Source: an uncultured Pseudohongiella sp. | GTDB taxonomy: Bacteria; Pseudomonadota; Gammaproteobacteria; Pseudomonadales; Pseudohongiellaceae | Length of the DNA stretch: 64,000 nucleotides | Assembly (NCBI GenBank): GCA_965115845.1 | Contig: OZ220475.1 | Location: 1,496,368 to 1,560,367, forward strand | Direction of reading: 5' to 3' | In this document: positions 20,359 through 49,141 of the stretch, in pieces | Layout: every line of letters starts with the position of its first letter | How positions within the stretch are numbered: the stretch's first letter is position 1 | Notes under the pieces: model-generated | Database searches by the model: none | What the model saw: the letters and a program-made list of their open reading frames with translations, nothing else | What the model was told of the DNA's origin: nothing | Position numbers and translations under genes: made by a program

Positions 20359-20420
20359 CCGAACAATTCCATTCATGGAATCATTCATCGTCGCAAAACC
20401 AGAGCATGTTTTCGTCCTGG
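20359..20420 (+). repeat. Modular intergenic repeat, short degenerate copy (A plus B)
   Basis: ccgaacaattccattcatggaatcattcatcgtcgcaaaaccagagcatgttttcgtcctgg. Confidence 0.65.
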
Positions 20421-20427
20421 TATCCCC

Positions 20428-20585
20428 TGAATAATTCCATCCATGGAATTATTCATTGCCGCAAGACAAAAGCGCGGTCTTGCCTTGCTCGCGGATTCGG
20501 CGGCTCGCGCCGTCGAATCCGGCGGGGCTTTTTGGTGCCGCGGGCCTGCGCCACAGGGAAGCTCTGACTTGATCAGGGCTTCCCT
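20428..20585 (+). repeat. Modular intergenic repeat, full-length copy (A-B-C-D)
   Basis: Four modules are present. A: tGAATAATTCCATCCATGGAATTATTCa. B: ttgccGCAAGACAAAAgcgcggtcttgccTTGC. C: GGATTCGgcggctcgcgccgtCGAATCC. D: GGAAGCTCTGActtgaTCAGGGCTTCC. Confidence 0.8.
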
Positions 20586-20751
20586 TGCTTCCGAATGCGA
20601 TAGATGCGCCGCGGGGAAGCGCTGCTTGATCAGCGCCCGGAGGCATGTCCGGCATCGGGCCGGCAAGGCGGGCGATTATAGCAGCGCGAGGCGAGACGCA
20701 TCCCGTCGGGGTAGAATCGCCGGACATGCCGGATATTGCGGGAGGCGGTAC

Positions 20752-21912: not shown

Positions 21913-21941
21913 GCGGCGGCCCGCGCCCGGCATTTTCATCG

Positions 21942-21985
21942 CCCCGCAAAGCGGAACCCCAGGCCGGGGGTTCCGCTTTGCGGGG
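21942..21985. terminator. Strong GC-rich hairpin between convergent genes (bidirectional terminator candidate)
   Basis: CCCCGCAAAGCGGAACCCC-aggcc-GGGGGTTCCGCTTTGCGGGG: a 19-bp perfect stem, 30 nt after the ACAD stop and 50 nt after the stop of the 22036 gene. There is no clear U-tract. Confidence 0.6.
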
Positions 21986-22035: not shown

Positions 22036-25000
22036 TCAGAGGATGAAATCATCCGCGGTCAAGCTGCCCGGTTTCAATGAACCATCATTATTGAGCATAT
22101 AGCCGTCAATCTCTTCTTCGGTTCTTCCCGCTAGCCCGATGGCCATGTCGGTCTCCTTGTCGAAATCGCCGTTTCCATTGATGTCGACCAATATCCAGAG
22201 AAAATGCGCGAATTGCTCATGCGAGCCACGCGATATTCCGATTTGGTTGTCCACGTAGGTGTCTTCTTTGGTTTTGATAGCCACGATAGTGTGCTGGCCA
22301 AATGTATGGCCGCCCTTATCGTTGACAGCTTTGAAAACCCCTTTCGCTTTTGCCTCGTTTTCATATAGATAGTTCGACAGATTATTGTTATGGGTTATGT
22401 GTTTAATCTCCTTTCCCCCTACCTTTATCGCCAAGTCAAGAGCGCTGAGGTCGATCTTGTCGGCATACGGTTTTAAGGTGCTGCCGCTGCCGCCGGACGA
22501 AACGAAGTTGAAGATGACATCCATGCCTGTCGGATTATCTGCATTGCTGCCCGTAAATGCGACTTGAGAATCGGATGCCTTTTCGTAAACGAACGTGTCC
22601 CTCTCAGATTCAGTTCCGTCACTTTCTCTTGCTGGATGGAAGACGCCGCCCGTCAACTCGTCCCCGCCGGCACCGCCCGCGATTCTGTCCTTGCCCTTGC
22701 CGCCGGCGATAATATCGTCGCCGCCGTAGCCCCACAACTTGTCGTCGCCGCCGCCGTTGTACACGATGATGTCGCCGCCGCCGTCGGAGCCGTGAATTTC
22801 CATGTCGTTTTCAAAGGTGACGCCGTCGCTTCCATAGGTGGGAGCCTCGGAATCGCCAAAAGTGTTGCCGGTCCTCAATGACAATCCGCCGGTGTTGTCG
22901 CGGGCGTCTATCATGTCCAGATCGCTGGTTTTGCCGCTGGTTTCGCCGCCGCCGTTGCCGGACAGATAGAATCCGGCGTTGCCGGTAATTGTCAGCGTTT
23001 CGAGGCCCTCGCCCTCAAGATGGGAAATCTCATGCAGGTAATGCGAAGCCTTCAAATCCGATTTCCCGACGACAACGCTGGAATCCATGGTCAACTCCTC
23101 GATGTCCTCGTCCAAAACGAGCTTCGTGCTCGTCAAGCCCAGATGCGTTATGGTGGAAGGGTCGAGTTCTTTATTCCTTGTGGGGTCTGCGGTGCTGATG
23201 ACGACATCTTTATTGAACGGCACTTTTTCGCCCGAGACCGTTGTGCCGGCGCCGTCGGCGGCAACTCCATAGCTTTTCAAGACGAGACTGGTTTCGGCAT
23301 CGTCGGCGTCTTTTTCCAGCATATAGCTTACATCGAAGTAATATTCATCGCTGCTTGATGATCTTTTGGCTTCGATGGCGAGACCCGACGCGGACTCCCC
23401 GACATTCTCGAACTTGATCGCGGGCGCGGTGCCGGACGTCACGCCTTTGGTCACCGTCAGCTTATGCAGCATGAGTTCCTCGAGATCGTACTTACCGGCA
23501 GCGGCGGACTTGTCGGCCTCCACCGTCAGGGTTGTCTTTTCAAAATTCATGAAGACATCGTCGTCGACATTCTTCAATTGGCTCGCCTTGTTCGCCGTCA
23601 GCGTCAGCGTGTCCTCGCCCGCGCCGCCGTCGACCCGGCTCCTGGCGCTGACGACGACGCCGGCGCCGATCGTGAACATGTCGTCGCCTTCGCCCAGCTC
23701 CGCCTTCAGGCCGTCCTTATGGAATTCCGTCGCCGCGACATCGTCCTTGCCCGAACCGCCCATGTAGCTCTCGACGCTTTTGCCGAGCCTGCTCACCTTG
23801 ACATCGCCGGTCGCCTCGCTCGCGTCGATGCTCTTCAGCGTCGCGGATATGACGATCGGGTCGGCCTCGGTCGGGTTGACCGCCGGCTTGAACTTGGTCG
23901 CGTCCAGCATCAGGTTGCCGGCGCCGGAAACGGAGACCGTCTCGATCTCGTCCGAAGCCAGGCGGATGTTGGAGTCGCCCTTCACCTCGATCGCCAGATC
24001 CTCGATGCCCTTGAGGCACAACTTGCCGTGCTCGCTCGCTGTGGAATACAGGCCGAACTTGTCGACCATCGCCGTCAGCGATGTCGGGTCGTCGCCCTTG
24101 ACATCGTTCTGCACGAGCAGGGTGGTGTTGGTGTTGGCGAGAGAGATATCCGTGATCGCCGTCGAGTAGATGTGCACCGGAACCGTGTCTGCGCTCGCTG
24201 TGATTTGATCTGCGGTGACCGTTGTGCCATCTATTTTGTCGTCCGTCTTGAACTTGCCTCGTTTGTCGGGCGTGCCCAGGCCGTCGTGCACGTCGTCGAG
24301 CGTCACGCTCTCGACCGTCGCGGAAGGCGCGTCCTCCTTGCCCACGTCGACGGTCTTGCCGCCTTCGACCATGATCGAAGTCGTCGTATCCGTGTCGTAG
24401 AGGCCCACATCCGCCATCTTGCTCACGCCTTCAAGCTTGACCGCGGCGGCGTTCATGATCTCGACCGTCGTATCCTTGTCGTCGTCGCCCAGGGATTTGG
24501 ACATGATGTCCGCGCCGCCGGCATCCAGTTCGACATCTCCCTCGACATCGCTCAGGACGACCTCCTTCAGGCCTTCCCAGCCGCTCAAGTCCGCCTCGAA
24601 GTCGCCGCCGCTGTCGACCGTCAGCGTCTCGACGTTCATCACGCTCGCCCCGGAAGAGACGCTGACATTGTCGTCGGAGCCGCTGGAAGAAAGCTCCAGC
24701 GTGTCCATGCCCTCGCCGCCGTCGAGCCGGTCCACGCCGGTCAGGGTCTTCTCGGTGGCGACGAAAGTGTCGTCGCCCAGGGTGCCGTCGAGCCGGTCGA
24801 CACCCGTGGTCAATTCAAAGCTCTTGCCGGGACGCCGCATCATGTCGATGGCTTCCTTCGCAGTATCGACGCTGTCACCGTCGCCGGTCACGCCGCCGAG
24901 CACGCTCGAGGAAGCACCTTCCCAGCGTTTCTCCACGGTGTAATAGGTCGCCACCTGCACCTTGTTGGCGAACATCATGGCGAGGGCGCCGAAATCGCCG

Positions 25001-25389
25001 TAGGCGGGATGGCTTTCCCCCTGCATGCGGATCTCGAACAATTGCCGCACAGCCAGCAAGCCCATCTCGCCCCGGCCCAGGCCGCCGTTGAGCAGGCCCG
25101 TCGCCAGGGCCAGCACTTCCGCCGACGGCGCTTCGCCGAGCGCCGCGGTCAGAAAATCCCGGGCGAACTCCGCGTTCGTGATGAAAAAGGGATACATGGA
25201 CGTGAAGGCGCTCGAGGCGGCGATGTGATTCGCCACCTCCAGCAGGGCCATTTCCGGGCTCATGCCCTTGTCCACGCTTGCGTTGTAGACACCGTACCAT
25301 TCGTTGAGCAGCTCGGTGCCCGGGGCCTTGCCCAGCATGGCCACCGACAGGCCGATTATCGTATCTCTGGTTTGCGCTGTTACCGCCAA
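22036..25389 (-). CDS. RsaA-like S-layer/RTX protein, predicted type I secretion substrate (paralog 1); the start codon shown is TTG without SD
   Basis: 1117 aa. The N-terminus (M)AVTAQTRDTIIGLSVAMLGKAPG and TTGVDRLDGTLGDDTFVA blocks resemble RsaA-type S-layer proteins (from memory). Ca-binding nonapeptides GGGDDKLWGYGGDDIIAGGKGKDRIAGGAGGDELTGG. The C-terminal DTFVYEKASDS...DVIFNF...ADKIDLS matches the T1SS C-terminal target pattern. The protein is acidic and Cys-poor. Confidence 0.8.
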   Translation of the reverse strand: MAVTAQTRDTIIGLSVAMLGKAPGTELLNEWYGVYNASVDKGMSPEMALLEVANHIAASSAFTSMYPFFITNAEFARDFLTAALGEAPSAEVLALATGLLNGGLGRGEMGLLAVRQLFEIRMQGESHPAYGDFGALAMMFANKVQVATYYTVEKRWEGASSSVLGGVTGDGDSVDTAKEAIDMMRRPGKSFELTTGVDRLDGTLGDDTFVATEKTLTGVDRLDGGEGMDTLELSSSGSDDNVSVSSGASVMNVETLTVDSGGDFEADLSGWEGLKEVVLSDVEGDVELDAGGADIMSKSLGDDDKDTTVEIMNAAAVKLEGVSKMADVGLYDTDTTTSIMVEGGKTVDVGKEDAPSATVESVTLDDVHDGLGTPDKRGKFKTDDKIDGTTVTADQITASADTVPVHIYSTAITDISLANTNTTLLVQNDVKGDDPTSLTAMVDKFGLYSTASEHGKLCLKGIEDLAIEVKGDSNIRLASDEIETVSVSGAGNLMLDATKFKPAVNPTEADPIVISATLKSIDASEATGDVKVSRLGKSVESYMGGSGKDDVAATEFHKDGLKAELGEGDDMFTIGAGVVVSARSRVDGGAGEDTLTLTANKASQLKNVDDDVFMNFEKTTLTVEADKSAAAGKYDLEELMLHKLTVTKGVTSGTAPAIKFENVGESASGLAIEAKRSSSSDEYYFDVSYMLEKDADDAETSLVLKSYGVAADGAGTTVSGEKVPFNKDVVISTADPTRNKELDPSTITHLGLTSTKLVLDEDIEELTMDSSVVVGKSDLKASHYLHEISHLEGEGLETLTITGNAGFYLSGNGGGETSGKTSDLDMIDARDNTGGLSLRTGNTFGDSEAPTYGSDGVTFENDMEIHGSDGGGDIIVYNGGGDDKLWGYGGDDIIAGGKGKDRIAGGAGGDELTGGVFHPARESDGTESERDTFVYEKASDSQVAFTGSNADNPTGMDVIFNFVSSGGSGSTLKPYADKIDLSALDLAIKVGGKEIKHITHNNNLSNYLYENEAKAKGVFKAVNDKGGHTFGQHTIVAIKTKEDTYVDNQIGISRGSHEQFAHFLWILVDINGNGDFDKETDMAIGLAGRTEEEIDGYMLNNDGSLKPGSLTADDFIL

Positions 25390-26036
25390 TCAGAACTTGT
25401 TGATATGCCTGCGTATTTGCCGGATTCCCGCGGGCCGGCCGCTGAATCGCCGCGCGAACATGAACGGGAACTTCCGGCCCGCGGAGCCGTCGGCCGGGGC
25501 AGCCTCGCGGCACTCCGTCGAATAATTTTTCGGGGCAGCGACATCGCGTTCTGCGGGCAGCGACACCGCGCGGCGGACCGAAACGCGGCCGCGAAAAAGG
25601 CGCGCATCGCGCGAATCCCTCTCCGGAAACGCGCGCGGCGGCCCGACGGCCGAATCGCCCGCCGTCCCGGCTCGGCGGGTCGCGGGAAAACCAAACTGCT
25701 TGCGGCGGTGCAAGAAATTTGTCGGCAACTATCTGATTTGCAAGTAATAAAATAAGCCGAAGCTCGGCGCTCGACGGCTTTCTCGAAAGCGCTCCCTCGG
25801 CCTGCGAGATGTCTCGCGTTCACTTCCAGGCCGGGGCCGAGGCGGGCCGCGCAACCGGCCGGAACGCGTCGCGGCTGGGCGCAATACCGGCGTTTCGCGG
25901 CCGCTTGGGCGGCCAAAAAATTTCGATAACTTGTGATCCCGGTCACATGCGCGCGGCGCGGGTACTGTCGTACAATATCGCCATGCGAAACCCTTCCCCA
26001 ATTTTACAGGAGCACTCCCAATGGCGGTAACAGCGC
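25374..26036. promoter_or_regulatory. Predicted invertible promoter/start-codon segment (inverton 1), bounded by 15-nt perfect inverted repeats, apparently in OFF orientation
   Basis: Left arm GCGCTGTTACCGCCA (25374-25388) is the reverse complement of right arm TGGCGGTAACAGCGC (26022-36). The left arm is codons 1-6 of the 22036-25389 gene. The right arm is preceded, inside the segment, by a promoter, AGGAG and ATG that point away from the gene. Confidence 0.55.
25932..25976 (+). promoter_or_regulatory. CRP/Vfr-type palindrome plus -10 box inside inverton 1 (class II-like promoter reading toward the right arm)
   Basis: TGTGA-tcccgg-TCACA at 25932-25947. After a 23-nt gap comes TACAAT at 25971-25976. 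AGGAG at 26008-26012 and ATG at 26021. Confidence 0.5.
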
Positions 26037-26164
26037 TTACCGCAAATTGGTTTGCCCGGGCTGCCGGCGGCGATGCCGGACAATGCGCCGGGCCGAAAAG
26101 TCAGGAGAAAAGGGAACAGGCTTCATATTCGCCGGCGCCGGGAACGGCATTCCTCTTGATGTGA
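26021..26164 (+). CDS. 47-codon read-out ORF created by the current inverton orientation (MAVTALTANWFARAAGG...); probably not a functional product
   Basis: AGGAG-N8-ATG. The first five residues, MAVTA, match the S-layer-like gene because they are encoded by the inverted repeat. The ORF is too short for the ORF track and runs toward a convergent gene. Confidence 0.3.
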   Translation: MAVTALTANWFARAAGGDAGQCAGPKSQEKREQASYSPAPGTAFLLM

Positions 26165-26269
26165 AATCAGCGTCGATGGCGGAAGAAAGCAATCCGGTGT
26201 CGCAGGCAGGCGGGTTTTGATGCGGATACATCCGCGGTCATGACCAGAAGCCGGGCCGAGACACTCGTC

Positions 26270-26368
26270 AAACCGGATTCGACGGCGCAAGCCATTGAAT
26301 TCGGGAGCAGGACAAGACCGCGCTCTGGTTCTGCGGCAATTGAACAATTCCACGAATGGAATTGTTCA
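26270..26368 (-). repeat. Modular intergenic repeat, reverse orientation, degenerate (C-B-A)
   Basis: ccggattcgacggcgcaagccattgaattcggg, then agcaggacaagaccgcgctctggttctgcggcaat, then tgaacaattccacgaatggaattgttca. Confidence 0.7.
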
Positions 26369-26376
26369 GCGAATGC

Positions 26377-27012
26377 TCAGTGCACGGTCGCGGATGCGGG
26401 CCGGCCGCCGGTCTGGGCGAATGCGGGATGCAGCAAGTCCGTGCGTCCTACCACGAGCAGGTCGTTGCGATACAGGCTTTTCCCGCCGGTTTCGCCGTCG
26501 ATCCGAAGATCGTCGAGCAGCACGCAGGCAACTTCCTCCTCGGCGACTTCAACGACGACGCAGGGCTTGAAACCGCCGACTGTATTGAGCGAGGCGAGGC
26601 AGCCGACCGCGGCTTCGTGGCGCGGATACTCTCCGGCGGCGGTCTTGAGCGCGCCGGCGGGAAGATAGGGCGCGCCGAAACCCGCGGCGGCGACGATGTG
26701 GATGATTTCAATTACTTCGGGGTCGGTCAGGTCCAGGCGCACGGTATCGGGCTGGTCCGTGCCGCGTCCAAGCCGGCGCTGGTTGACCAGGCGCATGAAC
26801 AGGTCGAGATCGCTCTGGTTCCATTCCAGGATCTCTTCGCCGGCGGAAATACCCGGGTCGGAGGCGAGCCTGAGGATGCCGGTTTCTATGGTGAGGTCGA
26901 AAGTTTCGGAATCGTCGGGACCGGGCACCACCATGGCTACGGAATACGAGCCCTTGTCTTCGTTCGCGCACAACCGCCAGAGAAAAGGCACTTCTCCCGT
27001 CAATTCGATCAT
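26377..27012 (-). CDS. Hypothetical protein, 211 aa, no family recognised
   Basis: ORF 26377-27213, trimmed to MIELTGEVPFLWRLCANEDKGSY at 27012. Strong third-position GC bias on this strand (ATC GAA TTG ACG GGA GAA GTG ...). The opposite-strand ORF 26356-27105 lacks that bias. Confidence 0.55.
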   Translation of the reverse strand: MIELTGEVPFLWRLCANEDKGSYSVAMVVPGPDDSETFDLTIETGILRLASDPGISAGEEILEWNQSDLDLFMRLVNQRRLGRGTDQPDTVRLDLTDPEVIEIIHIVAAAGFGAPYLPAGALKTAAGEYPRHEAAVGCLASLNTVGGFKPCVVVEVAEEEVACVLLDDLRIDGETGGKSLYRNDLLVVGRTDLLHPAFAQTGGRPASATVH

Positions 27013-27333
27013 CGGCGACTCATCAACGCCATGGACGGAGAGGCGCGAGCAGGACTGCGAGGAGCAACATTGCCGGACATTCCACAGGAAGACCTGCGCG
27101 GATAGTACCACAAAACCCGGCGCCGACCGCCGGCGCGCTTCCTTCCAGCCGCTTCGCTCCTTCCATCGGAAGCGCGCGACCCCGTTTTCCCGAACTGAAT
27201 CAACCGTTGTCAAAACGGCGATTCAGCCTCATATGCATCTGAACCGGCGCACGCGCTGGCAAGGCGGAGCCGCAGCCACTATAGTCGGACCATTGCCGAA
27301 AGGGTATTTTCCAGCCTTGCGCGGTCAGCTTCG

Positions 27334-27356
27334 CCATCCACAGAATCTGTGGATAA
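27334..27356. promoter_or_regulatory. Inverted pair of DnaA-box-like 9-mers inside an AT-rich intergenic island
   Basis: ccATCCACAGaatCTGTGGATaa is an 8-bp perfect palindrome. The minus strand of 27348-27356 reads TTATCCACA, the consensus DnaA box. The plus strand of 27334-27342 reads CCATCCACA (7 of 9). Confidence 0.3.
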
Positions 27357-27704
27357 CTTGGTGAATAAGTCCGGGCGATGTTGCGGAAACCTTGCGGCGA
27401 CGGGAATTTCGGCAAAATTGCACAAATTTTGATCAAAAATATAATTTCATTGTATATCAATGAGTTAAATCTTATTTGCCGATCATGAAAAAATATGAAG
27501 CTGCAATTGTCAGCGTTTTGTTTCAGTACGGTCGTTTTTGTGCATAAATTTCCGATCTTGTGCCGGTTCGGGAAAAAGCGGCCATTTGTTGCTTGCTGTT
27601 TTTATTGAATTTTTCCTGAAATAAAAAACCATTCGTTCCAGTTCGCCATGCCGGGAAACGGAACAGCCGCAACGGCGGACAACGGATCGCGACGGACTTG
27701 CGCC

Positions 27705-28778
27705 ATGTCATTCGAAAGATACAACATCGCACGAATGCGGGGCTACGCTCCCGGCGAACAGCCGGATTCGCCCGCGATCATCAAACTCAATACCAATGAG
27801 AATCCGTATCCGCCGCCGGCCGCGGTCGCCGCGGCCTTGCGCGCCATGGACGGCGCCGAACTGCGCCGCTATCCCCCTCCCCTGGCCGACGATTTCCGCG
27901 CTCTCGCCGGGCTGGTCCACGGCCTTGCCCCGGAGAGCATTCTTCCGGTCAACGGCGGCGACGAGTTCCTGCGGCTGCTGCTCGCCACATTCGTCGATTC
28001 CGACGAGATCCTGGCGGTGATGCGGCCGTGTTATTCGCTGTACCCCGTGCTCGCCGCGGCCGCCGGTTGCGGACTGCTGAACATTCCCCTGACCAGGGAT
28101 TGGGGGGTGCCGGACCGCTTGCCGGCGTTATTGCGCGGACACGATGTCAAGATGCTGGTCCTCGCCAATCCCCACGCGCCGACCGGCGGATTGCTGCCGG
28201 TCGACCGCCTGCGCCGGCTCGCGCGGGATTTCGAGGGCCTGCTGGTGCTCGACGAAGCCTACGCCGACTTCATCGACCCCGCCCTCGAGTACGACTCGAT
28301 GCCGCTCGTCAGGGAATTCCCGAACGTGCTGATCTTGCGCACCATGAGCAAGGGTTATTCGCTCGCCGGACTGCGTTTCGGCTACGGCATCGGGCCGCCC
28401 GGCCTGATCCATCCCATGGCGACCAAGACCAGGGACAGCTACAACACGGATCTCGTCTCCCAGAAGTTGGCCAGGGCGGCGCTGGAGTCCAGAGACGAGG
28501 CCGCGCGGACCTGGGCGCGGGTCAGGCGGTCCCGCGAATGGCTGCGCGGCCAACTTGCCGGGCTGGGCCTCGAAACCCTGGCCAGCCAGGGCAATTTCCT
28601 GCTGGCCGCGATTCCTGCCGCCGTCGGCGCCGTCAACCTCTATCGGGCCCTGAAGGAGCGCGGCGTCCTCGTGCGCCATTTCGCCGAGCCCCGGCTCGAC
28701 AACCGGCTGCGAATCACCGTCGGCAGCGAAACCGACAACGAAATCCTCATCGACAAGTTGCGGGACATCCTGCAATGA
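27705..28778 (+). CDS. hisC: Histidinol-phosphate aminotransferase family (class II aminotransferase)
   Basis: MSFERYNIARMRGYAPGEQ...IKLNTNENPYPPP...LRTMSKGYSLAGLRFGYG (PLP-lysine block). Start taken at the second Met of ORF 27648. Confidence 0.8.
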   Translation: MSFERYNIARMRGYAPGEQPDSPAIIKLNTNENPYPPPAAVAAALRAMDGAELRRYPPPLADDFRALAGLVHGLAPESILPVNGGDEFLRLLLATFVDSDEILAVMRPCYSLYPVLAAAAGCGLLNIPLTRDWGVPDRLPALLRGHDVKMLVLANPHAPTGGLLPVDRLRRLARDFEGLLVLDEAYADFIDPALEYDSMPLVREFPNVLILRTMSKGYSLAGLRFGYGIGPPGLIHPMATKTRDSYNTDLVSQKLARAALESRDEAARTWARVRRSREWLRGQLAGLGLETLASQGNFLLAAIPAAVGAVNLYRALKERGVLVRHFAEPRLDNRLRITVGSETDNEILIDKLRDILQ

Positions 28779-29020
28779 TCTTTTCCCTGTTGAAGACCAA
28801 CAAGAAGACTTCCGCCGCCCTCGCCGGCATCGCCATCGGCATCGCGAGCCTGTGGGGATTGTCGCTATGGCAGGATATTTCCGTCGGGGAATTGCTGCGC
28901 CTGCTGCTTGCGGTGCTGGCCATGCTCGGCGGGCTCGCCCTGGTCGCGTTCTGCGCCGTCGCCCTGGGCAAATTGTCATTCGCGGGCGTTGCGCTCCTGA
29001 TCCGGCGCCTGCGCTCCTGA
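28775..29020 (+). CDS. Small membrane protein (81 aa, two predicted TM helices)
   Basis: ATGA overlap with the hisC stop. MIFSLLKTNKKTSAALAGIAIGIASLWGLSLW...LLAVLAMLGGLALVAFCAVALG. Confidence 0.45.
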   Translation: MIFSLLKTNKKTSAALAGIAIGIASLWGLSLWQDISVGELLRLLLAVLAMLGGLALVAFCAVALGKLSFAGVALLIRRLRS

Positions 29021-29722
29021 GAGACGGCCGAGACGGCCGCGCAAGGGCTGCAGATCCCGCCAGCAGAGCTTCTTCAGGTCGGGAAAGGCGAGCATTTCCC
29101 GCAAGCCGCGAGTAATGGTCACTTGCATGCGGACGCCGCCGACGAGACGGGAAAAATCCGTCGCCGACGGCGCGGCCTGCGGAAACAACTCGCTGTCGTC
29201 ATGCGCGAAAATCAGCAAATTGGGACAACGGTCGCGCTGACACAGGTCTTCCAGCAAACGGCCCCGGGCCGCGTCCGTTGCGGCGGGATCCCGATGCGGA
29301 ACGGCGATTTCGGCGCCGGCGGCCAGCGACCTCCCCAGGGCTTGCAGGATATTCGCCAGCAAATCGCGGCATTGCGCGCCTTCCGCGTTTTCCCATTCGT
29401 CTTGCGCGAGCAATGCCAGCGAATCGTCGACGCGCAGATAATGCAGGACGGCGCGCGCGGCGCCGGCCGCGGATTCCGCCGGCGGCGGCCGCGCCCGAAC
29501 CGGGCGCTGCGCCGGCGCGGCGGCGCGTTGCGTCGGCTGGCCGGAACGGCGCGCCGGCGCGTCCGGAGGGCGCGCTCGCCGGGGCTTCGGAGATTCGACC
29601 GGGAAGACCGGCGAAGGTCCGGCATTTTTCGGAACCACCCGCGCGTACCACGGCTGAATTCCCATCAGCGCCAGGTATTCCCGCCGCCTGCTCTCGTTCC
29701 TGTTGCCTTCGGTTTCCGTCAT
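28976..29722 (-). CDS. DNA polymerase III psi (HolD)-like protein with Pro/Ala-rich linker
   Basis: ORF 28976-29971 trimmed to MTETEGNRNESRRREYLALMGIQPWYAR. The N-terminal L-x-x-MGI-x-x-W and the C-terminal LREMLAFPDLKKLCWRDL resemble E. coli HolD QLGITQW and LRANPTARAALWQQI (recalled). The central region is low-complexity. Confidence 0.45.
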   Translation of the reverse strand: MTETEGNRNESRRREYLALMGIQPWYARVVPKNAGPSPVFPVESPKPRRARPPDAPARRSGQPTQRAAAPAQRPVRARPPPAESAAGAARAVLHYLRVDDSLALLAQDEWENAEGAQCRDLLANILQALGRSLAAGAEIAVPHRDPAATDAARGRLLEDLCQRDRCPNLLIFAHDDSELFPQAAPSATDFSRLVGGVRMQVTITRGLREMLAFPDLKKLCWRDLQPLRGRLGRLSGAQAPDQERNARE

Positions 29723-29969
29723 GAGCGCACCGCCTCGACCGGCAGTCCCGGGCGGGAAAATAACCCTTGTCCCGCCGCTTGCGCAAGCGTTCCGGAGCCG
29801 TTGCGCCGGTCCAGATAACCATGAGACCGGATCGCCGTCTCGACAACGGCCGGTTCGGACGGATGCTCGCGCCGCACATCCCGGAGCAGACGCCTGACCG
29901 CAGCGCGGCGCATCCTCATTATTCAGGGGATGCGGCCGTACGACCGGTATTTTCATCGCCTCGAACAGC

Positions 29970-29998
29970 AAAACCCCCGACCGAAGCCGGGGGTTTTT
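29970..29998 (-). terminator. Rho-independent terminator candidate downstream of S-layer-like paralog 2
   Basis: AAAACCCCCG-accgaagc-CGGGGGTTTTT. On the minus strand the stem is followed by TTTTG. It lies 55 nt after the stop at 30053. Confidence 0.6.
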
Positions 29999-30052
29999 GG
30001 GTCTGGGAACACCGAATGACCGGGTTCCGGTTACGACCGGCGAAGCGCCGGG

Positions 30053-33000
30053 TCAGATGAAATCCCCTCCTTGCAAATCACCGGTGCCGCTGTAGGGCTC
30101 CAGCGCCAGCAGCGCAATAGCCATATCAGTGGTGGCGTCGAAATCACCGTCCCCATCTACATCGACAAGAACCCAGGTCACACCCACTGTACCCGTACCC
30201 TCAGCTGAATTACCGATCTTTCGGAAGTCGACGCTCTCCGCGGTAGTCTTGATAGTGGCAACGGTGTTTTTTTGCGGAAACGAATTGCCATCCGCTGGCG
30301 TTTCGAAGGCGCCGGCAAGCTTACCTGAAGTCAGGTATTCCTTTAGCGATGTCTTTCCATCAACAGTCGCATCCCTGACCTGTCCATTCAAGTCCACTAC
30401 ACCGGAAAGATCGATCTTGTCTTCCCCGCTCCTGAAACCAATGATTCTGTCAAAACCAGACGCCGGATCCCCTGCCTGATTGAATTTGATTCGAGAGTCG
30501 GATGCATGTTTGTAAATGAAGGTATCTTTTGCCTCGTCAACACCAGCCGCATAGGTCCCCCCCAAGTAGGAATTGCCAGAATCACCAAAAGACGCAAACT
30601 GAAAGTAAATGTTTGGCTCGTTGTTCAAATTGATGAGCCACAACCAAACTGAACGCGGAATTAATACATCTCCCCCGGCACCGCCGGTAAGCATGTCTTC
30701 TCCCTTGCCGCCAGCCAGCACATCATCTCCCCCGCCACCTTTCAGCTCGGTTTTCATTTCGTGGCCATTGTTGGTCCCATTAAGATTTGCTACCACCCAA
30801 TCATTGACCGGACTACCCTCAACTACCAGTTTCTCCGACGATCCGCTCTTTGCTGCTCTCAGCAAAGCAAGCCCTCCAGAACTTTCTCGCGCATCCACCA
30901 ATTCCAGGGATTGCAGTCCAGCCTTGTCGTAATCCCAAGCTCTGTTTTTCCTGGCTATGGTTGTGTTTATGAAGGTTTTGGCTTCGCCAGTGACTTTGAT
31001 TTCCTCAATCCCATCGCCCTGCCTGACGACAACCCTGTTGACGTAGTCCCCGGCCTTGGGGCGGTTATCGGCAACCGTTGAAATGACTTTCGCCGTGGAG
31101 CGCACGACCAGTTCCTCGATGTCCTTGTCCAAAGTGAGGTCCAATGCCGTCATCTTTACGTTATGCTTTACACCGAAATCCCCTTTCTCGTCCTTCGTGC
31201 CGCCGTCGGTGTGCAGATGCAGCATCAACGAGTCGTCGTCGCCGCCGTCCTCCAGCATGTAGCTCACCACAGCGGTCGTGGCCTGCGCCTTGGTCTCCTG
31301 CGGCTTGCTTTCGTCGTCGGGCTTCGGCTTTTTGCTCGAAACCGCCAGACCGGTGCCGGACATCAGGTTCTTGAACGTGACGCCGCCGGTGCCGGTGCCG
31401 CCGGTCACCTTCAGGTTGTCGATGTCGAGCTCCTTGACATCGTAGGTTCCCGAGCCTTCGCCCGCTTCCAGTGTGATGGTCTCGAAGCCCGTGTAGGCGT
31501 CTCCGGCCCCCTTGAGGTTGGCACCGGTCTTTTCCTTCAACACCAGCGTGTCCATGCCCGCGCCGCCGTCTATCCGGCTCTTGCCGGCCTTGACGTTGGC
31601 GACGGTGAACATGTCGTCGCCGGCGCCGAGGTTCGCCGTCAAGCCGTCCTTCGCGAACGCCGCCACGCTGACTTCGTCCTTGCCCGCGCTGCCCATGTAG
31701 CTCGTGACGCTCGCGCCCAGATTGCTCAACTTGACGGCGCCGCTAGCCTCGCTTGCGTCGACCGTCTTCAGTTTCTTCAGCCCCATCGCGTCCAGCGTCG
31801 TCTTGCCGGAGCCGGACAAGGTCAGTTTCTCCAGCGTCTCGGACGGCTTGACATCGGCCGCTTTCTCCGCCACCGCCGGCGCGAATTTGGTCGCGGACAG
31901 CGTCAGGTCGCCGGCGCCGGAAACGGCGACCGTCTTGATCTGGTCCGAAGCCAGGCGAATGCTGGAATCGCCCTTCACCTCGATCATCAGGTCTTCGATG
32001 CCCTTGAGGCACAACTTGCCGTGCCCGTTGGCCGCGTTGCCGAACCGGTCGACCATGGCCGTCAGCGACATCATGTCCTTGGCGGCGTTCTCCACCAGCA
32101 AGGTGGTGTTGGTGTTGCGCAGGTCGACGGACTCGATCGCCTTCGAGTAGATGTGCACCGGAACCCTGTCCTTGTTGTTGACCGCGGCTGTGTCGCCTGC
32201 GGCCGGCGTGTCGGTGCCGTAGCGCTTGCCGTCGTCGCCCATGCCGTCGTGTACGCCGTCGAGCGTCACGCTCCTGACCGTCTCCGAATGCGCGGTCGAC
32301 TTGCCCACCTCGACACCCATGCCGCCTTCGACCATGACCGAGGTCGTCGTGTCCGTGCCGAAGATATTCACCTGCGCGCGGGCGTTCACGTACTCGAGGT
32401 TGACAGAGGCGGTGTTCACGATCTCTATTGTCGTATCCTTGTCGTCGTCGCCCAGGGATTCGGACACGACGTCCGCGCCGCCGGCATCCAGTTCGACATC
32501 TCCCGCAACGTCCAGCTCGACCGTCGCGAGGCCCGTCCAGCCGCTAAGGTCCGCATCGAAGTCGCCGCCGCTGTCGACCGTCAGCGTCTCGACGTGCATG
32601 ACGCTCGCTCCGGAAGAGATATTGACATCGTCGTCGGAGCCGCTGGAAGAAAGCTCCAGCGTGTCCATGCCCTCGCCGCCGTCGATCCGGTCCACCCCGG
32701 TCAGGGTCTTCTCGGTGGCGACGAAGGTGTCGTCGCCCAGGGTGCCGTCGAGCCGGTCGACGCCCGCGGTCAACTCGAAGCTCTTGCCGGGACGCCGCAT
32801 CATGTCGATGGCTTCCTTGGCCGCGGTCACGCTGTCGCCGTCGCCGGTCACGCCGCCGAGCACGCTCGCAGAGTCGCCTTCCCAGCGCCTGGTAACGGTG
32901 TAGTACGTGGCCACTTCCACCTTGTTGGCGAACATCATGGCGATGGCGCCGAAATCGCCGTAGGCGGGGTGGCTTTCTCCCTGCATGCGAATCTCGAACA

Positions 33001-33349
33001 ACTGCCGCACGGCCAGCAGACCCATCTCGCCCCGGCCCATGCCGCCGTCGAGCAGGTCCGTCGCCAGGGCCAACACTTCAGCCGACGGCGCTTCGCCCAG
33101 GGCCGCGGTCAGGAATTCCGTCGCGAACTCCCTATTCGTGATGAAGAAGGGATACATGGACGTGAAAGCGCTCGAGGCGGCGATGTGATTCGCCAACTCC
33201 AGCAGGGCGTCTTCCGGGCTCATGCCCTTGCCGACGCTCGCGTTGTAGACGCCGTACCATTCATTGAGCAATGCGGTGCCCGGGGCCTTGCCCAGCATGG
33301 CCACCGACAGGCCGATTATCGTATCTCTGGTTTGTGCAGTTACCGCCAA
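30053..33349 (-). CDS. RsaA-like S-layer/RTX protein, predicted type I secretion substrate (paralog 2); the start codon shown is TTG without SD
   Basis: 1098 aa. The first ~290 aa are nearly collinear with paralog 1, and the centre and C-terminus diverge. RTX block GGGGDDVLAGGKGEDMLTGGAGGDVL. C-terminal DTFIYKHASDS...DRIIGFRSGEDKIDLS. Confidence 0.8.
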   Translation of the reverse strand: MAVTAQTRDTIIGLSVAMLGKAPGTALLNEWYGVYNASVGKGMSPEDALLELANHIAASSAFTSMYPFFITNREFATEFLTAALGEAPSAEVLALATDLLDGGMGRGEMGLLAVRQLFEIRMQGESHPAYGDFGAIAMMFANKVEVATYYTVTRRWEGDSASVLGGVTGDGDSVTAAKEAIDMMRRPGKSFELTAGVDRLDGTLGDDTFVATEKTLTGVDRIDGGEGMDTLELSSSGSDDDVNISSGASVMHVETLTVDSGGDFDADLSGWTGLATVELDVAGDVELDAGGADVVSESLGDDDKDTTIEIVNTASVNLEYVNARAQVNIFGTDTTTSVMVEGGMGVEVGKSTAHSETVRSVTLDGVHDGMGDDGKRYGTDTPAAGDTAAVNNKDRVPVHIYSKAIESVDLRNTNTTLLVENAAKDMMSLTAMVDRFGNAANGHGKLCLKGIEDLMIEVKGDSSIRLASDQIKTVAVSGAGDLTLSATKFAPAVAEKAADVKPSETLEKLTLSGSGKTTLDAMGLKKLKTVDASEASGAVKLSNLGASVTSYMGSAGKDEVSVAAFAKDGLTANLGAGDDMFTVANVKAGKSRIDGGAGMDTLVLKEKTGANLKGAGDAYTGFETITLEAGEGSGTYDVKELDIDNLKVTGGTGTGGVTFKNLMSGTGLAVSSKKPKPDDESKPQETKAQATTAVVSYMLEDGGDDDSLMLHLHTDGGTKDEKGDFGVKHNVKMTALDLTLDKDIEELVVRSTAKVISTVADNRPKAGDYVNRVVVRQGDGIEEIKVTGEAKTFINTTIARKNRAWDYDKAGLQSLELVDARESSGGLALLRAAKSGSSEKLVVEGSPVNDWVVANLNGTNNGHEMKTELKGGGGDDVLAGGKGEDMLTGGAGGDVLIPRSVWLWLINLNNEPNIYFQFASFGDSGNSYLGGTYAAGVDEAKDTFIYKHASDSRIKFNQAGDPASGFDRIIGFRSGEDKIDLSGVVDLNGQVRDATVDGKTSLKEYLTSGKLAGAFETPADGNSFPQKNTVATIKTTAESVDFRKIGNSAEGTGTVGVTWVLVDVDGDGDFDATTDMAIALLALEPYSGTGDLQGGDFI

Positions 33350-33995
33350 TCAGAACTTGTTGATATGCCTGCGTATTTGCCGGATTCGCGCGAACCGGCC
33401 GCTGAATCGCCGCGCAAACATGAACGGGAACTTCCGGCCAGCGGAGCCGTCGGCCGGGGCGGTCTCGCAGCGCTCGCCGAATAATTCTCCGGAGCAGCAA
33501 CACCACGTTTTCGGGACGGCGACACCGCGCGGCGGACCGAAACGCGGCCGCGAAAAAGGCGCGCATCGCGCGAATCTCTCCCCGGAAATGCGCGCGGCGA
33601 CCCGGTCGCCGAATCGTCCGCCGTCCCGGTTCGGCGGATCGCGGGAACACCGCCCCGCCTGCGGCGGCGCGAGAGATTTGCCGGCAATTGTTTGATTTAT
33701 CAGTAAATAAATAAGCCGGCGCACGGCGCTCGACGGCTTTCCCGGAAGCGTTCTGTCGACCTTCGAAGAGGCTCGCGATCATTTCCAAGCCGCCGCCGAG
33801 GCGGGCCGCGCAAGCGGCCGGAATGCGCCGCGGTCGGACGGAGCATCGGCGTTTCGCGGTTGCCTGGGCGGGCGAAAAATTTCGATAACTTGTGATCCGG
33901 GTCACATGCGCGCGGAGCGAATGTTGCTATATAATGCCGTTCTGCAACATTTTGTCTTTAATTTCAGGAGCGTCCCAAATGGCGGTAACTGCACA
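33333..33995. promoter_or_regulatory. Predicted invertible promoter/start-codon segment (inverton 2), bounded by 16-nt perfect inverted repeats, apparently in OFF orientation
   Basis: Left arm TGTGCAGTTACCGCCA (33333-33348) is the reverse complement of right arm TGGCGGTAACTGCACA (33980-33995). The interior is homologous to inverton 1 and has the same layout. Confidence 0.55.
33891..33935 (+). promoter_or_regulatory. CRP/Vfr-type palindrome plus -10 box inside inverton 2
   Basis: TGTGA-tccggg-TCACA at 33891-33906. After a 23-nt gap comes TATAAT at 33930-33935. AGGAG at 33966-33970 and ATG at 33979. Confidence 0.5.
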
Positions 33996-34077
33996 TACCG
34001 CGAACTGGTTTGCGCAGCCCGTCGCCAGCGATGCCGAAGGAATCGACGGGCAGTCCGACGGTCCGAATCCTCGATAG
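33979..34077 (+). CDS. 32-codon read-out ORF created by the current inverton orientation (MAVTAHTANWFAQPVASDAEG...); probably not a functional product
   Basis: AGGAG-N8-ATG. It shares MAVTA with the S-layer-like gene through the inverted repeat. It is the in-frame tail of track ORF 33892-34077. Confidence 0.3.
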   Translation: MAVTAHTANWFAQPVASDAEGIDGQSDGPNPR

Positions 34078-39013: not shown

Positions 39014-39128
39014 AGGAAAGCCCTGACCAAGTCAGAGCTTTCCTGCGGTACAGGCCCGTGGTACAGGAGAGTGCCGCCGGGTTCGACGGCGCGAGCCGCC
39101 AAATCCGGGAGCAAGACAAAACCACATT
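39014..39128 (-). repeat. Modular intergenic repeat, reverse orientation, truncated (D-C-half B, lacks A)
   Basis: GGAAAGCCCTGAccaagTCAGAGCTTTCC...gggttcgacggcgcgagccgccaaatccgggagcaagacaaaaccaca. Confidence 0.7.
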
Positions 39129-39338
39129 CCGGGAGACGAGGAAAACTTGCCAAGGCAACACGATTGAGACAGTATCGAAATTCCTGCAATCAAAATTCTC
39201 CAACCCATCGCAAGGTCCAGTCATATCCGGATTTCAGGCTCATTTCCTTGCTGGAAATCGCTGGCCGTCAACCGCCTCGACAACGAGAAACCGGCGGTGT
39301 CCCGGATGTGGCGGGCGACCGATACGGGAGCGATTCCG

Positions 39339-41206: not shown

Positions 41207-41357
41207 ATAATTCCATCCATGGTTATTCATTGCCGCAAGACGAGCGCGATTTTGTCTTGCTCCCGGATTCGGCGGCTCGCGCCGTCGAATCCGGCAGCGC
41301 TCTTCTTGTACCGCGGGCATGCGCCGCAGGGAAGCTCTGACTTGATCAGAGCTTCCT
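41204..41357 (+). repeat. Modular intergenic repeat, full-length copy (A-B-C-D)
   Basis: tGAATAATTCCATCCATGGTTATTCattgccgcaagacgagcgcgattttgtcttgctcccggattcggcggctcgcgccgtcgaatccgg...cgcagGGAAGCTCTGActtgaTCAGAGCTTCC. Confidence 0.8.
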
Positions 41358-41449
41358 TTGCTGCCGGAATTCGCCTTCGGCGATAAAAATCCCCGCAAGG
41401 AGTTCGAGGCCGGTTGCCGCTCCCGTCCGCCTGACGGATAATCCGGGCC

Positions 41450-45515: not shown

Positions 45516-45528
45516 TCCAAGTATCCTC

Positions 45529-45690
45529 TGAATAATTCCATCCATGGAATTATTCATTGCCGCAAGACAAAAGCGTGGTTTTGTCTTGCTCCCGGATTCA
45601 ATGGCTTGCGCCATCGAATCCGGCGGCGCATCCCAGCGCCCTGGTTTTGCGGCAATGAACAATGCCGCGGATGGCATTGCCCGGAGGATG
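45529..45690. repeat. Modular intergenic repeat: forward A-B-C joined head-to-head to a degenerate reverse B-A
   Basis: Forward part: tGAATAATTCCATCCATGGAATTATTCattgccGCAAGACAAAAgcgtggTTTTGTCTTGCtcccggattcaatggcttgcgccatcgaatccgg. Reverse part: ttttgcggcaatgaacaatgccgcggatggcattgccc. Confidence 0.7.
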
Positions 45691-46496: not shown

Positions 46497-46645
46497 GGGA
46501 AGCTCCGATCAGGCCGGAGTTTCCCTGCGGCGCATGCCCGCGGTACAAGCCCGCAGTATAAGAGAGCGCCGCCGAATCCGCGAGCAAGACAAAACCGCGC
46601 TCCTGTCTTGCGACAATGAATAATTCCATGGCTGGAATTATTCAG
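46497..46645 (-). repeat. Modular intergenic repeat, reverse orientation, full length (D-C-B-A)
   Basis: gggaagctccgatcaggccggagtttccc...gccgaatccgcgagcaagacaaaaccgcgctcctgtcttgcgacaatGAATAATTCCATGGCTGGAATTATTC. Confidence 0.8.
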
Positions 46646-46863
46646 AAAGCTTCGAACCTTAACCCACATCGCTGTTTCTTGCAAGCCTTGCCGGAGCCGA
46701 TTTCCGTCTGCAAAACAACCGCTTACCGGCAAGATTGCGGCCCTCCCGCTGAATGGCCGCTGAACAGGCAGGGCGCGCGGCCAAAAAAATTTTCGGCGGT
46801 TTTTTCTCATTTGCCGGGATTTGCGCCTAGGCTTGTTTCCGCAATCACCAGGAGACGGAAACC

Positions 46864-47280: not shown

Positions 47281-48827
47281 CCGCCGCGACAGACCAGCGC
47301 AGCGCGGAAATCCGGGCGGCCGCGGCGGCGCTCGGCGCGCCCCTGCTTGATCTCGACGCTTTCGACCCGCAACTGATCGAGCGCGGCCTGCTCGACCGCA
47401 AGCTGATTCGGCAGCATTGCGTATTGCCGCTGCTGCGCAGCGGCGACCGGCTGCTGCTCGCGCTGTCCGATCCCGCGGCGACGGCCGCGCTGGACGAGGT
47501 CAAGTTCCACACCGGCCTTGCGGTGCAGCCGGTGGTCGTGGAAGCGGACAAGCTCGAACGGGCCTTGCGCTTGCAGGGGCGCGGCGAGGGGCTGCTCGAC
47601 GAACTCGGTCTCGACGAGTTGCAGGCCGAGGCGGCGCCGGAGCCCGGCGCCGCGGGCGAGGCGGCGGGCGCGGACGAAACGCCCATCGTGCGCCTGGTCA
47701 ACCGGCTGCTGCTGGACGCCTTGCAGGCCGGGGCGTCGGATATTCATTTCGAACCATTCGAAACGACCTGCAAGGTCCGCTTCCGCATCGACGGCGTCTT
47801 GCGCGAGATCACCCGCCCGCCGGTCAATATCGCCCGGCGCATTGCCTCGCGGCTGAAAATCATGGCGCAAATGGATATTTCGGAGCGGCGGCTGCCCCAG
47901 GACGGCCGCATCCGGCTGCGCATGGCGGACGGGGGAGTGGATTTCCGCGTCAATACCTTGCCCACGCTGTGGGGAGAAAAGCTGGTGCTGCGCGCGCTCG
48001 ACGGCGGCGGCGAGCAAATGGATATCGAAGCCCTGGGCCTGACGGACGCCCAGCGCGAACAATACCTGCGCGCGCTGCGAAGGAGCCAGGGCCTGATCCT
48101 GGTCACCGGTCCCACCGGCAGCGGCAAGACAGTCACGCTCTATGCCGGGCTGCGCCTGCTCAATACCCCGGAAAGAAATATCGCCACGGTCGAGGATCCG
48201 GTGGAAATAAATCTCGAAGGCGTCAATCAGGTCGCCGTCAACAATCGCGTGGGGCTGGATTTCGCGCTGGCGCTGCGCGCCTTCCTGCGGCAAGACCCGG
48301 ACGTGCTCATGGTCGGCGAGATCCGCGATCCGGAAACGGCCGAAATCGCCGTGAAAGCCGCCCAGACCGGCCATCTGGTACTTTCGACCCTGCATACCAA
48401 CAGCGCCGGAGAAACACTGGCCCGACTCAAGAACATGGGCGTGCCGGCTTTCAATCTGGCGACTTCGGTGCGATTGATCATCGCCCAGCGCCTCGCCCGC
48501 AAGCTTTGCCCGCATTGCCGGCAACCCGCGCGGCTGCCGCGCGAAACCCTGCTCGAGGCGGGCTTCCCGCAAGCCGGGGTCGATGAGCTGGAGTTGTTCG
48601 GCGCCCGGGGCTGCGAACATTGCAAGGACGGCTACCGGGGCCGGGTCGGCGTCTACGAGGTATTGCCCGTCAGCCCGGCCATGGCGGACCTCATCATGCG
48701 CGACGGCGACGCCCTCCGGATCGCCGCCCTGGCAAGCGAGGAAGGACACGGCGACCTGCGCCGGGCGGCGCTCGACAAGGCCGCGGCGGGACTGACCAGC
48801 CTCGACGAAGTCAACCGCGTCGCTTGA
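47274..48827 (+). CDS. pilB: Type IV pilus assembly ATPase PilB
   Basis: GSPII_E-type N-terminal domain ([22 protein letters not shown]). Walker [20 protein letters not shown]...CEHC tetracysteine motif. Start inferred at an in-frame GTG overlapping the pilA stop, because no ATG is available nearby. Confidence 0.88.
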
Positions 48828-48972
48828 GGGAAGCTCTGATCGAGTCAGAGCTTCCCTGCGGCACATGGATGTGCCGCCGGATTCGGCGGCGCGAGCCGCA
48901 GAATCCGGGAGCAAGACAAAACCACGCTTTTGTCTTGCGGCAATGAATAATTCCATGGATGGAATTATTCAG
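48828..48972 (-). repeat. Modular intergenic repeat, reverse orientation, full length; first of a tandem pair
   Basis: GGGAAGCTCTGAtcgagTCAGAGCTTCCCtgcggcacatggatgtgccgccggattcggcggcgcgagccgcagaatccgggagcaagacaaaaccacgcttttgtcttgcggcaatGAATAATTCCATGGATGGAATTATTC. Confidence 0.8.
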
Positions 48973-48981
48973 AGGATACAA

Positions 48982-49117
48982 GGAAAGCTCTGATCGAGTC
49001 AGAGCTTCCCTGCGGCACATGCCCGCGGTGCTGGAGAGCGTCGCCGGATTCGGCGGCGCAAGCCATTGCATACGGGAGCAAGACAAAACCACGCTTTGGT
49101 CTTGCGGCAATGAATAC
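48982..49117 (-). repeat. Modular intergenic repeat, reverse orientation; second of the tandem pair, module A truncated
   Basis: GGAAAGCTCTGAtcgagTCAGAGCTTCCCtgcggcacatgcccgcgg...ccggattcggcggcgcaagccattgcatacgggagcaagacaaaaccacgctttggtcttgcggcaatgaatac. Confidence 0.75.
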
Positions 49118-49141
49118 TTGAGACGGCGGAGGCGGGCGATA

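Follow-up and report, generated by a model that had tools for sequence, protein, structure and literature searches.

A dispersed family of RsaA-like, RTX-type genes with private invertible promoter segments in the genome of an uncultured Pseudohongiella species

Known cases of surface-layer (S-layer) variation come mainly from a small number of pathogens, and those of multi-promoter inversion from Mycoplasma penetrans and Bacteroides. Here we analyse two minus-strand genes, A and B, located in a 64,000-nt stretch of the genome of an uncultured Pseudohongiella sp. (contig OZ220475.1 of assembly GCA_965115845.1, positions 1,496,368 to 1,560,367; hereafter the window), which are two members, both in the OFF state, of a dispersed and lineage-specific family of RsaA-like, RTX-type genes. 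The components of this system can be likened to RsaA, to the sap genes of Campylobacter fetus, to the mpl genes of M. penetrans, to the invertons of Bacteroides and to Vpma/Xer1 (PMC2268961, PMC4232325). The literature that we searched contained no description of the family, of S-layer invertons of this kind, or of this combination.

RsaA of Caulobacter crescentus is encoded by a single-copy, constitutively expressed gene. RsaA with its exporter RsaDEF (PDB 5N8P, 6P5T, 6Z7P) and the proteins described here share a length of ~1000–1100 aa, an N-terminal domain of helices preceding a beta-rich calcium/RTX body and, by prediction in the present family, a PrtD-type ABC/HlyD/TolC export route without the C39 peptidase domain. 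They differ in that the present family has 36 copies with one switch each, that its N-terminal domain belongs to another fold family and that its GGxGxD motifs are few (2–6 per paralog across the family).

The sapA/sapB homologue family of C. fetus was reportedly described by Dworkin, Tummuru and Blaser, whose work is listed among the references of PMC4232325. Its 8–9 clustered copies are served by one promoter on a 6-kb invertible segment, and rearrangement depends on RecA-mediated recombination in 600-bp homology. The two systems have in common several S-layer homologues with a conserved 5' and a variable 3' part and, as predicted for the present family, type I secretion and variation by DNA inversion; however, the family considered here consists of 36 dispersed copies with private 650-bp switches bounded by a 16–20-bp repeat, on which a candidate tyrosine recombinase would act in trans. 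The layout with one mobile promoter is not found in this genome, where each copy has its own promoter segment, but a similar one is suggested in two relatives (G019 and L041), in which one copy bears a promoter and start-less copies lie beside recombinase genes. In the mpl (P35) lipoprotein family of M. penetrans, each gene is said to possess one invertible promoter (Horino et al. 2003). Here the likeness extends to a surface-antigen family of ~38 members, private invertible promoters and combinatorial ON/OFF states. The mpl genes, mostly clustered and with switches of 135 bp, belong to a pathogen that lacks a cell wall and encode small lipoproteins, whereas the present family encodes 1100-aa, probably type I-secreted, RsaA-like proteins of a Gram-negative environmental bacterium, with a repeat that overlaps the start codon and 5' halves that evolve in concert.

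The capsule and surface-protein invertons of Bacteroides resemble the arrangement proposed here in combining a global, trans-acting recombinase with many dispersed promoter switches, but those switches govern polysaccharide operons. In Mycoplasma agalactiae, the Xer-like tyrosine recombinase Xer1 is dedicated to the vpma surface multigene family and recombines at a site that every gene carries at its 5' end (PMC2268961). There, one promoter serves a clustered locus. The recombinase considered here is a candidate, assigned by its gene neighbourhood in other genomes. Finally, phase variation through homopolymeric promoter tracts operates in fimbrial or outer-membrane protein genes of Neisseria, Haemophilus and Bordetella. 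It has a counterpart in the poly-G tracts of a second lineage with homologous genes (ERZ25068685), while the genome containing the window has inversion switches.

The explanation that we favour, and hold to be reasonably probable, is that of a switchable coat: a family of 36 RsaA-like proteins with a concerted 5' part and private switches flipped by a recombinase. The proteins would be exported by a type I system of the PrtD/HlyD/TolC type and anchored through the conserved helical N-terminal domain. Each copy comprises a 650-bp invertible segment with a Crp-type class II promoter, a Shine-Dalgarno sequence and the first base of the ATG, then a 5' part of ~620 codons, a variable C-terminal third and a terminator. 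Gene conversion would homogenise the switch and the 5' part over all copies, the C-terminal thirds having diverged into 34 versions, and a Xer-like tyrosine recombinase paralog (G000 2646647-2647876) would flip each switch independently. Cells could thereby select which coat variants to produce, the likely benefit being that phages or predators recognising a given coat are evaded.

A family of 36 RsaA-like proteins

The host genome is represented by one contig of 3.38 Mb and is 98% complete. A search of it with A gave ~38 matches, and a tblastn census seeded with the first 290 residues of A identified 36 full-length and 2 partial copies, 89–95% identical to A in that part and scattered over the whole chromosome. 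All 36 full-length paralogs are open frames of 1045–1117 aa; internal stops flagged in several of them proved to be alignment artefacts. Each copy constitutes a cassette of ~4 kb, in which an invertible promoter segment of ~650 bp precedes the gene and its terminator. The repeat unit extends from ~50 nt outside the distal repeat arm to ~60 nt past the stop codon, with a conserved terminator hairpin included. Collectively, the family and its switches occupy 142.8 kb, or 4.2% of the genome. The original prediction, made from the letters of the window, had regarded A and B as a pair of sister paralogs and proposed a search for further silent cassettes elsewhere. The former did not hold, as the two belong to a dispersed 36-gene family in which each is closer to distant loci; as to the latter, no promoterless silent cassettes were found in the genome, every copy having its own invertible promoter. 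A full-length copy at the contig end (G000:C1:3382695) has a switch that is rearranged and in part inverted, and lacks a recognisable start, and one partial copy (G000:C1:1745389-1745795) consists of a switch fused to ~codon 173.

A family profile built from 23 members was compared with the PDB and matched RsaA (6p5t, 5n97, 5n8p and 6z7p) with E values of 1e-24 to 4e-23. Profile positions 187–883 align with RsaA residues 248–910, that is, with nearly the whole lattice domain. A search of the PDB with a single sequence (phmmer) yielded no RsaA match, but AlgE R-modules and serralysins instead. The AlphaFold2 model (mean pLDDT 78) displays nine helices in aa 1–183 followed by a long beta-rich body, and the top six Foldseek hits to this model were all RsaA (E 4e-17 to 4e-14, probability 1.00, TM-scores 0.31–0.44). 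The resemblance is remote, with ~17% identity. Modelled alone (aa 1–200; pLDDT 87, pTM 0.82), the N-terminal domain had no significant match in a fold search of the PDB (best E 0.6). It does not correspond to the N-terminal domain of RsaA in either sequence or fold, and the profile alignment starts only at position 187. When the contigs of the genome collection were scanned with this domain, a single distant match was obtained, in Rhodothalassium.

RTX features are present in both proteins. With the Pfam HemolysinCabind model (cut-off 23), B scored 23.9 bits and A narrowly missed the threshold at 22.3 bits. Pfam and NCBIfam models indicated weak RTX and serralysin-C-terminal similarity at ~aa 860–990, with likeness to the C-terminal part of serralysin/ZapA. 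The repeats recall the beta-roll of serralysin and AlgE. The GGxGxD nonapeptides and the C-terminal DTF pattern that had been noticed by eye are indeed there: A and B have five such motifs each, and the pattern DTF.Y..ASDS...DKIDLS occurs in both. The extreme C-terminal tail (...DMAIAL...DFI) is conserved in nearly all copies of the family and is a putative secretion signal. The proposal of an RsaA-like/RTX S-layer type is therefore supported for the body of the proteins by profile (1e-24), fold (4e-17) and RTX repeats, so that the similarity to S-layer and RTX families expected from profile searches and structure prediction was recovered, but it fails for the N-terminal domain, which is not that of RsaA.

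The window contains no type I secretion ABC gene, in agreement with the original prediction, and the components were located elsewhere in the genome, in one PrtD/HlyD/TolC operon (Table 1). The ABC gene of the operon scores 720.9 bits with TIGR01842 (cut-off 510) and lacks a C39 peptidase domain, and the membrane-fusion gene scores 371.6 bits with TIGR01843 (cut-off 209). We infer that the proteins are exported through this system, and that they reach the cell surface and form a lattice there.

Alternatively, the family might have the same architecture and switching but consist of RTX adhesins, biofilm-matrix or other secreted surface proteins that form no crystalline S-layer. Such a role would accord with the low identity and TM-scores given above and with an N-terminal domain unrelated to that of RsaA; cadherin domains, typical of adhesins, are moreover found in more distant relatives, and seven loci in the ON state simultaneously are easier to reconcile with a repertoire of mixed adhesins than with one lattice. 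We nevertheless consider it unlikely, given that the profile alignment runs over almost the entire RsaA lattice domain, that size, domain order and export route are those of RsaA, and that one distant homolog carries the source name S-layer protein.

Invertible promoter segments and a candidate invertase

All 36 loci have an inverted repeat of 16–20 bp (GGTwTGyGCnGTTACCGCCA) with arms 623–655 nt apart, the proximal arm lying over codons 1–6. Enclosed between the arms are a TGTGA-N6-TCACA site, a -10 box, a Shine-Dalgarno sequence and the A of an ATG. Seven loci are in the ON orientation, in which the gene starts as ...AGGAGCAC-N6-|ATGGCGGTAAC. In the other 29, A and B among them, the start reads ...CAACAAGTTCTGA|TTGGCGGTAAC, with a stop codon immediately before the TTG and no Shine-Dalgarno sequence; this TTG start is the one seen for A and B in the assembly. 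Once inverted, switch A would read GGAG-N8-ATG GCG GTA ACA, the true start of gene A, and exactly this junction is found at the ON loci, the far arm of which is the reciprocal OFF junction. After flipping, the ON segments have a similarity of 0.82 to OFF segments, compared with 0.83 of OFF segments to one another. The 4-nt core of the repeat exists in four variants (CGCT, TGCA, TGCT and TGCG), and the variant is equal in both arms at 35/36 loci, whereas 10,000 shuffles averaged 11.2 such loci and never exceeded 22. The sole mismatched pair of arms belongs to a truncated copy. Such co-variation is what strand exchange inside a recombinase core would maintain. Two terminator-like hairpins are also present within the segment on the strand of the gene, although they constitute weak evidence. 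The anatomy of the switch can therefore be read in both orientations among the paralogous loci of one genome, and the segments are probably still being inverted.

Could the orientations instead be evolutionary fossils, that is, rare fixed inversions in a family under Crp-like control only, with most copies permanently silent? Orthologous loci of a related strain were compared at loci 29, 35 and 36 (95–98% identity), where no flipped switch was found: all three are in the same OFF state, as would be expected of fossils. Nevertheless, all 36 frames have stayed intact even though 29 of them would be permanently promoterless, the arms are intact and co-vary at all loci but the truncated one, and the genome encodes a family-linked recombinase with intact catalytic residues (see below), which makes this reading rather improbable.

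The TGTGA-N6-TCACA motif is nearly confined to the switches. The genome contains 37 perfect sites, of which 35 are inside switches, one is at a partial copy and one precedes a small GD-rich open reading frame. Two genes of the Crp family are present, one of them directly upstream of the secretion ABC gene. From this adjacency and the distribution of the sites, the Crp-like protein may be presumed to bind the motif. A FecR-like gene and a gene for a CHASE2 adenylate cyclase lie divergently beside the Crp-like gene. The sole perfect site outside the family (G000:C1:3363037-3363901) is accompanied by a TACAAT box and stands before the 266-aa, G/D-motif-rich frame just mentioned, which could be a further member of the regulon. 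The Crp-like gene, the FecR-domain protein and the CHASE2-adenylate/guanylate cyclase adjoin the secretion operon (G000:C1:3232553-3237189; L026 8554-13189) and may form a signalling module for coat expression.

Neither serine recombinases (PF00239) nor IS110/Piv-type transposases (PF01548) are encoded in the genome, which has four tyrosine recombinases. One of these (G000:C1:1150108-1151496) occurs once in nearly every genome of the genus, with 69–89% identity. This enzyme, of ~400 aa, is also conserved in thousands of proteins from gammaproteobacterial metagenome-assembled genomes. Canonical XerC and XerD are absent from the genome, their models scoring far below the cut-offs (best PF00589 score 55 bits). 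Consequently, the genus-wide enzyme is probably the resolvase of chromosome dimers and may represent a single-recombinase dif system. The other tyrosine recombinases include a P4-type integrase (383 aa) and a 233-aa fragment.

The candidate invertase, P0112 (2646647-2647876), is a Xer-like paralog that is 52% identical to the genus-wide enzyme and has intact catalytic motifs (R..K..HxxR..H..Y). Orthologs were found only in G019 and G045, and a broken remnant in G001. In G019, the ortholog ends 72 nt before a start-less family copy. Two metagenomic contigs, L040 and L041, carry orthologs (74% and 68%) immediately adjacent to RTX or family genes. L041 has two recombinase genes in tandem, situated between divergent family genes, one of which has a Crp-type promoter and an ATG, while the other has TAG at the same junction, in GGCTATAACCGCAG. 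P0112 is thus a candidate invertase of the switches through guilt by association, seen in G019, L040 and L041, which are independent genomes.

Homogenised 5' parts and divergent C-terminal thirds

The arrangement that had been predicted for A and B, two collinear minus-strand genes ~8 kb apart with about nine in ten nucleotides identical over some 290 codons and the upstream region, was confirmed. The start codons are 7960 nt apart. BLASTP gives 51% identity over all, with ~90% in residues 1–300 and far less thereafter, and BLASTN gives a single collinear block of 2205 nt (82.8%; 26078..23879 to 34036..31872) that extends from ~690 nt upstream of the start codons to ~codon 500. In successive 240-nt windows of the coding 5' part, identity is 0.90, 0.88, 0.93 and 0.85, and the upstream part, 82–88% identical over ~690 nt, has a mean column identity of 88%. 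Exact runs of 61, 58, 56 and 49 nt bear out the claim that stretches of more than 50 identical nucleotides exist, but the example quoted for it, 25321-25375, is identical at 54/55 positions. The divergence of the central and C-terminal parts around islands of identity was likewise correctly recognised, one island in the BLASTP alignment being HGKLCLKGIEDL.IEVKGDS.IRLASD.

Within the family, A and B are not particularly close. At 89.3% in the N-terminal part, B is the second least similar to A among the 35 other full-length copies, only locus 1893761 being lower (88.6%). The best partners of A in 240-nt windows are loci at 0.69 Mb and 3.04 Mb, the best partner of B varies between windows, and A–B identity is at or under the family median in almost every window, and the two are never mutual nearest relatives. 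With the nearest relatives at distant loci and A–B identity no higher than the median, tandem duplication is not the explanation of their likeness. The conserved part had been described as the N-terminal third; this is appropriate for A and B (~290 codons), but for most of the family conservation reaches ~codon 620.

Mean pairwise protein identity across the family is 0.8–0.98 up to ~aa 620 and 0.2–0.6 beyond. Median dS is 0.18 in codons 2–290 and 0.20 in codons 291–620, compared with 1.10 in the 3' third, a value that is near saturation and, the region being poorly alignable, partly inflated by alignment error. Given this roughly six-fold contrast, constraint at the protein level (dN/dS 0.2 in codons 2–290) is alone insufficient as an explanation. 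The non-coding upstream segment of ~650 bp is conserved as strongly as the 5' coding part. The nearest paralog of a copy changes every 240 nt, with tracts of 96–100% identity to different loci, and a PHI-type test on 359 biallelic sites gave a local incompatibility of 0.336, compared with 0.510 +/- 0.005 after permutation (0/1000 permutations reached the observed value). GC3 drops from 0.876 in the homogenised 5' part to 0.687 in the variable 3' part, which fits GC-biased conversion or else a separate origin of the 3' parts. Clustering of the C-terminal thirds yields 34 groups at 90% identity and 15 at 70%. These sequence comparisons suggest that frequent gene conversion maintains the likeness of the switch and the 5' part among the copies and that the C-terminal thirds have diverged. 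The idea that the long 5' tracts serve as substrates for gene conversion, put forward for A and B, is therefore borne out by the dS contrast, the mosaic of nearest neighbours and the recombination test, but as a property of the whole family.

Recombination between these tracts might also be thought to account for the variation itself, by a RecA-dependent process resembling that of C. fetus sap rather than by site-specific inversion. Substrate would be plentiful, as ~2.5 kb at 83–95% identity recurs in every copy and in either orientation, and the tracts left by conversion form a clear mosaic; however, the ON and OFF junctions are base-precise at the 16–20-bp repeat at every locus, and a private promoter is kept at each, making chromosome-scale inversions unnecessary. 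Homologous recombination would thus account for the homogenisation and not for the switch, and we regard it as a very improbable main source of variation. The notion that A and B arose by simple local tandem duplication, with N-terminal thirds kept alike by purifying selection alone, for which their common orientation, their spacing of 8 kb and the low dN/dS could be cited, is scarcely credible in view of 34 further copies chromosome-wide, A–B identity below the family median nearly everywhere, the six-fold lower 5' dS, the equally conserved non-coding segment and the positive recombination test.

Several observations weigh against the switchable coat that we favour. Seven loci are ON together in the consensus, which is odd for one crystalline lattice. 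A flip at one and the same locus has not been seen, the three loci comparable in the related strain being uniformly OFF. The N-terminal domain is without a known structural relative, its anchoring role being deduced from position and conservation alone, and the TolC-like gene of the export operon scores 210 bits with TIGR01844, just under the cut-off of 225.15 (Pfam OEP 162 bits). G042, a member of the same genus, has four family copies without the P0112 paralog, so that the link between recombinase and family is not absolute. To these may be added the reservation about the 3' dS value stated above.

On balance, this uncultured environmental bacterium appears to possess a coat-variation system of very large size. 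It would join S-layer variation and multi-promoter inversion, at a larger scale, in a free-living uncultured gammaproteobacterium, with a clear divide between homogenised sequence for anchoring and assembly and diversified sequence that is exposed. Should the switches prove active, it would become directly testable how a crystalline coat tolerates the exchange of its subunits, what selects for coat variation in the environment (e.g., phage receptors or grazing), and how a housekeeping recombinase of the Xer type became an invertase. The 34 natural variants of an RsaA-like scaffold could also serve the engineering of S-layer display.

Relatives and the surroundings of A and B

Other species of the genus have 0–5 family copies. 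In G019 and G001, a single copy possesses the TGTGA-N6-TCACA promoter and the other copies share the 5' untranslated region without the promoter, suggesting a sap-like layout with one promoter. The genome containing the window seems to have turned this layout into 36 private mini-switches, and the distal arm of each resembles the remnant of a gene start in the opposite orientation. Copies also differ between this genome and a related strain. At the position corresponding to G000:C1:16393-22760, the related strain (L024) has a family member with its switch where the present genome has none; instead, there is a 5.4-kb insert with a 697-aa P-loop ATPase-like open reading frame, which may be a defence island. 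In L042 (4094-5716) of the related strain, the family member orthologous to that at G000 2984268 is truncated by a 1.6-kb IS element, which is 99.9% identical to a copy at G000 1188198.

A second lineage, represented by a circular contig of 3.03 Mb (ENA ERZ25068685 ctg6966), encodes at least 45 homologs with 36–43% identity. Seven of its loci were read (in L020, L037, L038 and L039). In all seven, a tract of 14 to 21 G residues (G14-G21) is located between TTGAT and TATAGT boxes, downstream of a TGTGA-N6-TCACA site, and its length varies by locus; no inverted repeat was found in any of the seven. This is the classical slipped-strand arrangement. Per-gene switching appears to have arisen along separate paths in the two lineages, which offer a natural comparison of two switching mechanisms on homologous genes. 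A broader picture, which in our judgement has an even chance of being correct, is that of a 36-gene 'wardrobe' whose members are flipped separately by one Xer-derived recombinase, their anchoring half staying uniform through gene conversion, with the poly-G sister lineage as a case of convergence, and hence of large-scale S-layer variation outside the host–pathogen setting, probably driven by phages or predators.

The coordinates of the features are compiled in Table 1. Of the two genes that were thought to lie between A and B, the HisC-like aminotransferase gene was recognised (TIGR01141 264.7 bits, under the cut-off of 276.6) and the 'holD-like' one had no profile match. A crossover between A and B that would delete hisC is possible in principle. 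Searches of the window against Rfam at gathering thresholds and a tRNA scan returned zero matches, and the conserved upstream tract corresponds to no known riboswitch or other RNA. An in-frame open reading frame of 112 codons above the TTG start was rejected as a gene; it is Arg-rich, and an indel breaks the frame in copy B.

Table 1. Positions of the genes, switches and other features (window numbering, except for the secretion operon)
Feature	Position	Strand	Remarks
Paralog A	22036..25389	minus	1117 aa; helical N-terminal domain aa 1-185, RsaA-like beta-rich region, RTX ~aa 870-915, C-terminal tail
Paralog B	30053..33349	minus	1098 aa; architecture as in A
Switch A, OFF orientation	25374..26036	.	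inverted repeat 25374-25388 / 26022-26036; proximal arm = codons 1-6
Switch B, OFF orientation	33333..33995	.	inverted repeat, core type TGCA
TGTGA-N6-TCACA site, switch A	25932..25947	plus	TGTGACCGGGATCACA; promoter directed away from gene A
TACAAT -10 box, switch A	25971-25976		23 nt beyond the TGTGA-N6-TCACA site
Shine-Dalgarno sequence and ATG, distal end of switch A	26009..26023	plus	GGAG 26009-12, ATG 26021-23
TGTGA-N6-TCACA site, switch B	33891..33906	plus	
Terminator-like GC hairpin after gene A	21940..21985	minus	equivalent hairpin behind most family members
Terminator hairpin after gene B	29965..29998	minus	followed by T run
HisC-like aminotransferase	27648..28778	plus	between A and B; context only, outside the system
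Type I secretion operon PrtD/HlyD/TolC	G000:C1:3227887-3232356	minus	1.7 Mb from the window; single in the genome
Intergenic repeats	20415-20593, 26273-26340, 39014-39144, 41243-41366, 45516-45654, 46550-46646, 48814-49140, 59562-59779		

The window also harbours a family of intergenic repeats of ~60–140 nt, which occur in both orientations, are 61–92% identical and have the appearance of REP or MITE elements. One of them is located just upstream of switch A.

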